Source of the DNA: a virus
Lineage: Duplodnaviria > Heunggongvirae > Uroviricota > Caudoviricetes
IMG/VR virus record: IMGVR_UViG_2703719368_000014
Direction: 5' to 3' (one strand)
Length of the DNA: 5,794 bases
Each line of letters opens with the position of its first letter. Within the stretch, counting starts at the first letter, position 1. The position numbers were made by a program, and so were the translations under genes. Below the pieces are notes generated by a model. That model was not told the origin of the DNA, made no database searches, and saw nothing but the letters and a program-made list of their open reading frames with translations. Below are positions 2,032-2,196 of the stretch, in pieces.

Positions 2032-2196
2032 CTAGATTTTAAAGTATTTATCTTTTAGAGATGTAGATGTAAAACTTTTCGCCTTTGAAAATTTTTTGTC
2101 ATCAGAAGGGCTTATGAACTCATCTTTTTTGTAGGGAACCGCTAATGCTGCATCACGTCTGCGAGGCAGCTTGCTTACTTCCTCGCGCTTTTTCAT
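2032..2196 (-). CDS. Candidate small basic protein, 54 aa, distal gene of the kinase cassette (not in the supplied ORF track)
   Basis: ATG at 2196..2194 lies 2 nt after the kinase TGA stop (TGAtcATG). Translation MKKREEVSKLPRRRDAALAVPYKKDEFISPSDDKKFSKAKSFTSTSLKDKYFKI, with TAG at 2034..2032 abutting the terminator hairpin. Only a weak SD (AAGGA, 9-nt spacer). Confidence 0.35.
   Translation of the reverse strand: MKKREEVSKLPRRRDAALAVPYKKDEFISPSDDKKFSKAKSFTSTSLKDKYFKI

Follow-up and report, generated by a model that had tools for sequence, protein, structure and literature searches.

We propose that the 54-amino-acid (aa) product of the small gene L0081, encoded on the minus strand at positions 2032 to 2196 of the virus record IMGVR_UViG_2703719368_000014 (IMG/VR; the whole 5,794-nucleotide stretch that was analysed is referred to below as the window), docks on the adjacent eukaryotic-like protein kinase, Stk, and acts as its brake or regulator. 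The window corresponds to the immunity region of a 933W-type Shiga-toxin lambdoid prophage, with 99.5% identity to phage 933W and 100% identity to the corresponding region of E. coli ERL05-1306 (both by megablast). The peptide is a conserved third member of a mobile cassette with the order L0083, Stk, peptide and terminator. To the explanation as a whole, in which L0081 is a genuine gene of this cassette and its product a Stk-docking regulator, we assign a probability of roughly 0.45. The Stk kinase of 933W is among the longest-known prophage kinases that block a rival phage by killing their own host. The observation that such a kinase is nearly always accompanied by a constrained peptide and an RNase-H-like protein turns a "hypothetical protein" into a concrete candidate regulator.

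The small gene and its expression signals

The minus strand of the window carries, in this order, pM/pRM, cI, L0084, L0083, stk, L0081 and the terminator tM, followed by the OL/nutL region and N. Within the lysogenic pRM operon, cI-L0084-L0083-stk-L0081-tM, L0081 is the final cistron. Its ATG (2194-2196) sits 2 nucleotides (nt) past the stk stop codon, TGA (2199-2201), exactly as an earlier note on this DNA, made from the letters only, had described, and its own stop codon is TAG (2032-2034). The translation of positions 2032-2196 of the minus strand is MKKREEVSKLPRRRDAALAVPYKKDEFISPSDDKKFSKAKSFTSTSLKDKYFKI. Of the six frames, this is the only one without internal stops across the 165 nt, in line with the single open minus-strand frame read in the earlier note; the five other frames hold 2 to 6 stops each. 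A frame of equal length remains open in 1.8% of mononucleotide shuffles of the 165 nt, and chance is removed as an explanation because the sequence is conserved among homologues. With 12 Lys, 4 Arg, 5 Asp and 3 Glu, a net charge of about +8 and an isoelectric point (pI) of 10.0, the product is indeed highly basic. A Shine-Dalgarno (SD) sequence, AAGGA (2206-2210, minus strand), lies 9 nt 5' of the ATG and falls within the final codons of stk (…LKDN and the stop codon); AAGGA or AAGGG occurs at the same distance in the Pragia, Serratia, Enterobacter, Proteus and Providencia loci despite differing kinase C-termini.

At its 3' end, the gene runs into the intrinsic terminator of the lysogenic pRM transcript (2002-2033, minus strand; terminator scan), a G+C hairpin with a U-tract that is annotated as tM in 933W and as tRM in phi24B. 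The core stem has six G:C pairs (2014-2031), and the extended stem of 8 pairs (2012-2033) takes in the last two bases of the TAG; the RNA fold of the hairpin has an energy of -14.5 kcal/mol (z=-2.25). The stop codon therefore abuts the stem, and overlaps its 8-pair version by two bases, rather than ending 1 nt before the hairpin as first thought. A hairpin and T-run are found 3' of the open reading frame (ORF) in all homologous loci, with stem sequences that vary. The stop codon abuts or overlaps the stem also in the Serratia, Klebsiella-like, Enterobacter and Salmonella loci; in those of Pragia, Proteus and Providencia, the hairpin begins 12-15 nt past the stop.

The ORF is not unannotated, as had been supposed, and is already known as a database hypothetical protein. 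It appears under this designation in 933W (L0081, AAD25426.1), phi24B (vb_24B_12c) and RefSeq (WP_000745483.1). PHROG 4063 ("unknown function"), which it defines, is matched over residues 1-54 of 54 (E=2.5e-39). Of 39 matching phage records, 33 carry a 100% identical protein, in the same place between stk and tM. Genes under 60 aa are called inconsistently in RefSeq, and L0081 is an example: identical intact copies (e.g., L187 1705-1869, NZ_CP016628) are annotated in MIN6 and skipped in FORC_041, JX2, c1-17 and ES7 (all RefSeq E. coli). Searches with the Pfam, NCBIfam and PADLOC models returned zero matches to the protein, an Rfam covariance-model scan gave nothing over positions 2000-2200, and a literature search on L0081 and vb_24B_12c found no paper naming the gene beyond one supplementary-table row with a fold change.

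This row comes from RNA sequencing of phi24B upon induction, in which vb_24B_12c changed 3.6-fold (3.63, P=0.14, not significant), stk 1.8-fold, res 1.2-fold and 13c 0.65-fold, cI was unaltered, and the pL-side neighbour 11c was up 43-fold and the lytic genes 40- to 140-fold (PMC4651098 SI Table 4). As its fold change resembles those of stk, res, 13c and cI, and not that of 11c, L0081 behaves, at the transcript level, like a part of the lysogenic and not of the pL transcript. The stk gene itself is reportedly under pRM control and expressed in stable lysogeny (PMC3430580).

Conservation and selection

Word-indexed and exhaustive profile searches recovered 43 clusters of homologues (formed at 90% identity), 53-55 aa in length and down to 38% identical, with profile matches at E-values between 1e-24 and 1e-10. 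The genera represented are Escherichia, Salmonella, Klebsiella, Enterobacter, Raoultella, Pantoea, Erwinia, Serratia, Pragia, Xenorhabdus, Morganella, Providencia and Proteus. In a set of loci fetched via the kinase alone (39 viral contigs and 1 metagenome contig; kinase identity at least 66%), the small ORF is full-length in 40 out of 40; conservation of the frame in homologous loci, which the earlier note had named as a check, was thus found with neither a frameshift nor a stop. Among 14 distinct DNA sequences, all insertions and deletions are whole codons, and third positions vary in 43 of the 48 ungapped codon columns, as compared to 29 for first positions and 26 for second positions. The ratio of nonsynonymous to synonymous differences per site (pN/pS), pooled over five phylogenetically independent kinase-linked pairs, is 0.47 (binomial P=2.5e-4).

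This constraint is unevenly distributed along the peptide. The N-terminal motif, P-R-R-R-D-A-A-L-A-x-P-Y-K/T (codons 11-23; 2128-2166, minus strand), has a pN/pS of 0.28 with pS at 0.77, i.e., synonymous sites are near saturation and replacements are few, and synonymous changes are seen even within the invariant motif. The C-terminal motif, F-x-S-x-S-L-K-x-K-Y-F-K-[ILM] (codons 42-54; 2035-2073, minus strand), has a pN/pS of 0.38, and the linker between them (residues 24-41) is nearly neutral at 0.87. In the alignment of 35 family members from which both motifs were taken (alignment A6), M1, P11, R13, R14, A19, Y22 and L47 are invariant, and F42, K50, Y51 and F52 nearly so. The signature of the family, P-[RS]-R-R-[DE]-x-A-x-A-x-P-Y and F-x4-L-x2-K-Y-F-K-[LIM], is present in L0081. 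The proposal that the Ser/Thr-rich part of the peptide (SPSDD, SFTSTS) makes it a phospho-acceptor fares poorly here, because the residues highlighted are the least conserved ones, SPSDD lying within the linker.

Raw-read assemblies contain a handful of singleton variants whose C-termini are altered (database entries P0003, P0005 and P0007). Species-representative genomes, scanned with the small-protein profile and the kinase profile, yielded no useful locus because the cassette is too sporadic. We regard it as nearly certain that L0081 is a real, translated gene.

In four 933W-like IMG/VR contigs, each fetched twice (L017/L092, L027/L087, L038/L088 and L044/L091), stk appears to be split by a frameshift, located around codon 45-50 or codon 100, and the small ORF is intact. 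The split frames could be due to sequencing error or to real inactivation of the kinase.

Linkage to Stk

Homologues of L0081 are located directly 3' of a Stk orthologue in E. coli, Klebsiella, Enterobacter, Serratia, Pragia, Proteus, Providencia and taxonomically unassigned assemblies. These kinase-linked loci share one arrangement: a Stk orthologue of 347-349 aa, a 2-nt gap, the small gene, and a hairpin with a T-run. The start annotated in Providencia makes the two genes overlap by ATGA; with another possible ATG, 6 nt further 3', the 2-nt gap is restored. A 152-175-aa homologue of L0083 is found 5' of the kinase in the kinase-linked loci, and one of 152-188 aa precedes the kinase in most of the related and distant cassettes whose contig extends there; these range from Enterobacterales to distant metagenome contigs of low or high G+C content. 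The cassette sits behind many different repressors, both S24-type and CI-type, with Cro, YdaS or P22-Cro partners, and in Pragia, Serratia and several unassigned assemblies it lies outside the immunity region, beside integrase or tail genes. Among 5,426 complete E. coli genomes, the stk 3' end, the ORF and the terminator are present together in 223, and no match has the ORF by itself. The suggestion in the earlier note of a real gene linked to the adjacent kinase is thereby borne out, since the gene directly follows a Stk orthologue across genera and behind varied repressors. It is likely that L0081 is a functional partner within the Stk cassette.

Copies without a kinase

The association with stk is not universal. 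In four Salmonella prophages (L006-L008 and L013), the small gene stands after cI with no kinase. DNA homology to the kinase-linked loci spans the ORF and the terminator, starting from the ATG or 5 nt before it. Two of these copies (L006 and L007) have their own GGAGG ahead of the ATG, and that in L013 has a strong SD before an in-frame ATG 11 codons upstream. The possibility that the copies in L006 and L007 are scars left by deletion of stk was considered and rejected, as the ATG marks the exact start of the homology and has a new GGAGG in front of it.

A second kind of kinase-less copy is carried by the phage contigs L189-L191, where a variant, probably of 57 aa with a GTG start and a GAGAGG SD, follows the holin, endolysin and spanin genes. 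It shares with the kinase-linked gene of L196 a 119-nt coding core at 88% identity; neither the 5' end nor the last codons nor the terminator is held in common. Because solely the core is shared, selection in L189-L191 appears to act on the coding core and not on the terminator, and the idea that the terminator alone is selected, with the ORF hitch-hiking, was rejected on the same ground. Directly 3' of the variant are three genes (L189 4276-5310, plus strand), whose products match the SocA/Panacea antitoxin domain (E=4.4e-17), the crAss001_48 family (E=1.1e-6) and the Acb2/Tad1 hairpin (E=3.6e-7), respectively, all of them above the Pfam cut-offs. Known stand-alone copies occupy either the rex slot of Salmonella prophages or a site that follows the lysis genes and adjoins genes of the Panacea and Acb2/Tad1 types. 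Since kinase-less copies exist, the peptide may also act without a kinase in cis.

In Salmonella prophages, the gene before the kinase-less ORF (L006 5608-5946, plus strand) encodes a 112-aa protein unrelated to DUF3024, and a terminator-like hairpin lies between the two. This protein has a sub-threshold match to the Pfam family EACC1 ("effector-associated constant component"; E=0.0022).

Small ORFs behind distant Stk-like kinases

Kinases on viral and metagenome contigs that are 33-45% identical to Stk also have a small ORF, of 51-74 aa, directly 3'; many of these loci have a low G+C content like that of Firmicutes. In these distant cassettes, an L0083-like gene of the RNase-H type, with an N-terminus of the form …IGIR.TP…, precedes the kinase wherever the contig extends. 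The small ORFs mostly have a strong SD (GGAGG-type), and about half have an evident terminator. For eight low-GC distant loci, the chance probability of such an ORF is 0.02-0.07 each. No convincing downstream ORF was seen in four of the five high-GC relatives (31-35% identity) whose contig reaches past the kinase.

The analogous family comprises at least 128 clusters, from Clostridium, Caloranaerobacter, Paenibacillus, Bacillus (cereus group), Lysinibacillus and others. Its Firmicute members (alignment A11) resemble L0081 in their position after the kinase, their MKK start and their basic N-terminus, and they carry SRExLANPF where the L0081 family has RRDAALAxPY. Their sole invariant residue is one Tyr near the C-terminus, in a G-Y-hydrophobic context. 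They differ from L0081 in being longer (56-67 aa) and in having an extra conserved segment, AIDLxDN...DLGNGY. The distant small ORFs are positional analogues of L0081 and possibly its remote homologues.

Nature of the peptide and proposed mechanism

AlphaFold, run with the 35-sequence alignment, gave a model with four short helices and no compact fold (predicted local distance difference test score, pLDDT, 74; predicted template-modelling score, pTM, 0.24). A fold search of the PDB with this model returned zero matches at E<=10, and a sequence profile search of the PDB yielded designed TIM-barrel noise only (E>3). The peptide is thus predicted to be disordered, with no stable fold of its own. 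Two constrained motifs joined by a drifting, charged linker typify a peptide that acquires its fold on binding a partner. The kinase is the sole constant neighbour, and for this reason we infer that Stk is that partner; the tight spacing of the two genes suggests that they are co-produced. The product of L0081 is probably a regulator that binds the kinase.

We envision a mechanism in which: translation of L0081 would be coupled to that of stk through the 2-nt gap and the SD within the stk 3' end; the peptide would dock on Stk via both motifs; its R-R-[DE]-A-A segment would act in a pseudosubstrate-like manner; the peptide would thereby serve as a built-in brake that holds a potentially toxic kinase in check during lysogeny, until the kinase is triggered by an infecting phage; and stand-alone copies could function as orphan "antidotes" against Stk-type kinases. 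A brake is favoured for three reasons. First, R13-R14-[DE]15-A16-A17 is conserved in the L0081 family, with a likeness to a pseudosubstrate that holds at the motif level only; at that level, the invariant Tyr22 would likewise suit a pseudosubstrate or regulator. Second, orphan copies lie beside genes of the antitoxin or anti-defence type. Third, Stk is nearly inactive in uninfected lysogens, and infection by HK97 turns the kinase on, whereupon exclusion follows (PMC3681748).

The direction of the effect is the more tentative part of this proposal: that the peptide inhibits Stk, as a pseudosubstrate or otherwise, we consider possible but somewhat short of an even chance. The widest extension of it is rather unlikely, namely that L0081-type peptides form an unrecognised class of kinase "antidotes" that, when their gene of roughly 120-190 bp is captured alone by other phages, provide anti-defence against the Stk-type kinases of resident prophages, and that the Firmicute ORFs do likewise. 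If this were true, the latter would be remote homologues with the same job.

Several observations weigh against the main explanation. The selective constraint on L0081 is just moderate: the same five pairs give a lower pN/pS for both stk (about 0.11) and L0083 (about 0.07). Between two of the Salmonella kinase-less copies of L0081, pN/pS is 0.9, on 11 differences only, and the kinase-less copies might just as well attest to a function independent of the kinase. No natural kinase-peptide fusion was found among the homologue matches of either small-ORF family. Comparison of the enterobacterial with the distant small-ORF family by hhalign, in four set-ups, was not significant (P=0.03-0.15; 0.03-0.07 for the Firmicute ORFs), so that the wider generalisation rests on position and not on proven common descent. 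The catalytic loop of Stk, HFDIKPNN, bears, to our knowledge, no obvious sign of a preference for arginine-directed substrates. Finally, Friedman et al. in 2011 reportedly attributed exclusion to Stk and an HK97 trigger, gp41, and did not invoke L0081.

Alternative explanations

Of the alternatives, the one that survives best holds that the peptide is a substrate of Stk, a phospho-relay or a positive co-factor, with Tyr22 or Tyr51 as the most plausible sites of phosphorylation, and that the modified peptide, or a complex of Stk with the peptide and perhaps L0083, acts as the active abortive-infection effector or as a sensor of the phage trigger. The synteny with the kinase speaks for this explanation just as it does for a brake. 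Tyr22 is invariant and Tyr51 nearly so among the 35 sequences, the Firmicute family keeps one Tyr, and having the small gene last is not the commonest order in toxin-antitoxin systems. Furthermore, Stk has been described as a tyrosine kinase (PMC3681748). However, stand-alone copies are harder to explain for an obligate co-factor, and the Ser/Thr-rich stretch is the least conserved part of the peptide. On balance, we consider a substrate or co-factor role unlikely, though a serious competitor.

Less likely still is a function that does not involve Stk, L0081 simply filling the final place in the lysogenic operon, in which the peptide would act on a host protein or a superinfecting phage, or would be an arginine-rich RNA-binding peptide loosely like HK022 Nun. 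The intact kinase-less copies in Salmonella prophages and phage contigs, with their own ribosome-binding sites, would be accounted for in this way, and the basic peptide does have an R-R-R cluster and a K-Y-F-K C-terminus. However, the great majority of contexts are kinase-linked, with the 2-nt spacing kept through many changes of the flanks, and distant kinases keep an analogous small ORF. The RNA-binding version encounters difficulties of its own. The arginine-rich helix of N- and Nun-type proteins has about 17-20 residues, whereas the Arg cluster of L0081 has three, stands between two prolines and is not kept in the Firmicute family. No Pfam family, N_peptide included, matches L0081, whereas the N protein of the window does match PF25694. 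The Nun- or N-like arginine-rich-motif reading was set aside on these grounds.

It is very improbable that translation alone matters, the ribosome at the stop codon modulating termination at tM or protecting the 3' end of the pRM mRNA, with the peptide sequence being irrelevant. The stop codon does abut or overlap the stem here and in four other groups of loci, as described above, but the 12-15-nt separation in Pragia, Proteus and Providencia, the retention of just the coding core in L189-L191, whose terminator is not shared, and the conservation of amino-acid motifs through saturated synonymous change are at odds with it. A chance open frame, or a piece of a non-coding RNA or terminator element, might have been suspected of a short, A+T-rich ORF that has no Pfam or NCBIfam family and is omitted by some RefSeq annotations, but is hardly credible in view of the homologue clusters, the conserved motifs, the 40 intact loci out of 40, the pN/pS values and the lack of an Rfam match.

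Comparison with known systems

The closest described system is the abortive-infection system of 933W Stk, which is the same locus and operon, with a eukaryotic-like kinase in a prophage immunity operon. As published (Tyler and Friedman in 2004, Friedman et al. in 2011), it is said to consist of the kinase and a phage trigger, without the L0083-Stk-L0081 architecture or the peptide. The status of L0081 as a third member of the cassette, its two-motif architecture and the stand-alone copies appear to be undescribed in the literature searched.

For a mode of action, PKI offers a possible parallel. PKI is a pseudosubstrate inhibitor of protein kinase A with the core R-R-N-A-I. L0081 is likewise short, of a heat-stable type, predicted to be unstructured, and basic, with a conserved segment (R-R-D-A-A-L) that resembles an R-R-x-A-hydrophobic core at the motif level and a second motif beyond a linker; it differs in having no sequence homology, Pfam match or PDB fold match to the inhibitor family. 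Toxin-antitoxin systems provide further comparators, such as HipBA, with its kinase toxin, and T4 Dmd and pseudo-ToxI. The likeness is that L0081 is small, tightly and probably translationally coupled to a potentially toxic enzyme beside it, and located on mobile DNA, and that orphan L0081-type copies exist, one of them beside genes with Panacea antitoxin-domain and Acb2/Tad1-type matches. In contrast to such systems, L0081 has no detectable DNA-binding domain, and the small gene is downstream of the enzyme. With PD-T4-6 and Mad6 of MADS, the likeness is limited to the kinase domain of Stk. The match of Stk to NF047741 is far below the equivalog cut-off, and no PADLOC model matches either the peptide or L0083.

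If L0081 is an inhibitor, a kinase with a peptide brake would join the known defence architectures, possibly together with a new family of counter-defence genes. If it is not, L0081 would be an ordinary conserved small accessory gene.

Other genes and elements of the window

The stk gene (2199-3245, minus strand) encodes a eukaryotic-like protein kinase of 348 aa and is annotated as such (Pfam Pkinase, E=2.2e-46; PHROG 2361). Among defence models, it matches PADLOC mad6 (6.7e-50) and PD-T4-6 (1e-37), and NCBIfam NF047741 (2.5e-35).

L0083, called res in phi24B (3239-3700, minus strand), is the first gene of the three-gene cassette and overlaps the start of stk by 7 nt. Its 153-aa product is RNase-H/RuvC-like (PHROG 3875, "RuvC-like", E=7.8e-91); it has no Pfam match, and its NCBIfam RuvC E-value is merely 0.098. 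The N-terminus reads ILGVRAAP, and that of homologues IGIRVTP (e.g., L093 2444-2989 and L094 2371-2937), where canonical RuvC has ILGIDPG, with an Asp at the corresponding site. Because of this replacement, L0083 may be a non-catalytic partner with an RNase-H fold. The L0083-stk-L0081 block (2032-3700, minus strand) has a G+C content of 35-38% as compared to 41% across the window, which fits a horizontally acquired cassette.

Further upstream in the operon, L0084 (3767-4108, minus strand) encodes a DUF3024 protein (Pfam, E=2.2e-31). It is a frequent but optional neighbour of the cassette, present in the 933W, Proteus and Providencia loci and absent from those of Enterobacter, Klebsiella, Pragia and Serratia. 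L0084 also matches the PADLOC defence candidate PDC-S43 (E=2.2e-42). The cI repressor gene (4169-4876, minus strand), identified from the 933W and phi24B annotations and from pM/pRM and the operators, opens the pRM operon, at whose other end stand L0081 and tM.

On the other side of tM, the window contains a complete ORF for an N-type antiterminator (1196-1645, minus strand; 149 aa from the first ATG; N_peptide, E=2.8e-15; PHROG 271). In NZ_CP032803, which is 100% identical, just the last 69 nt of this ORF are annotated, as an "incomplete regulator" pseudogene. The window departs from 933W to the left of about position 1684, and N is annotated as 384 nt in 933W. The sole Rfam match in the window is Lambda_thermo, the cIII thermoregulator RNA element (430-488, minus strand; 88.5 bits, E=2.7e-21), which lies where the cIII gene begins.

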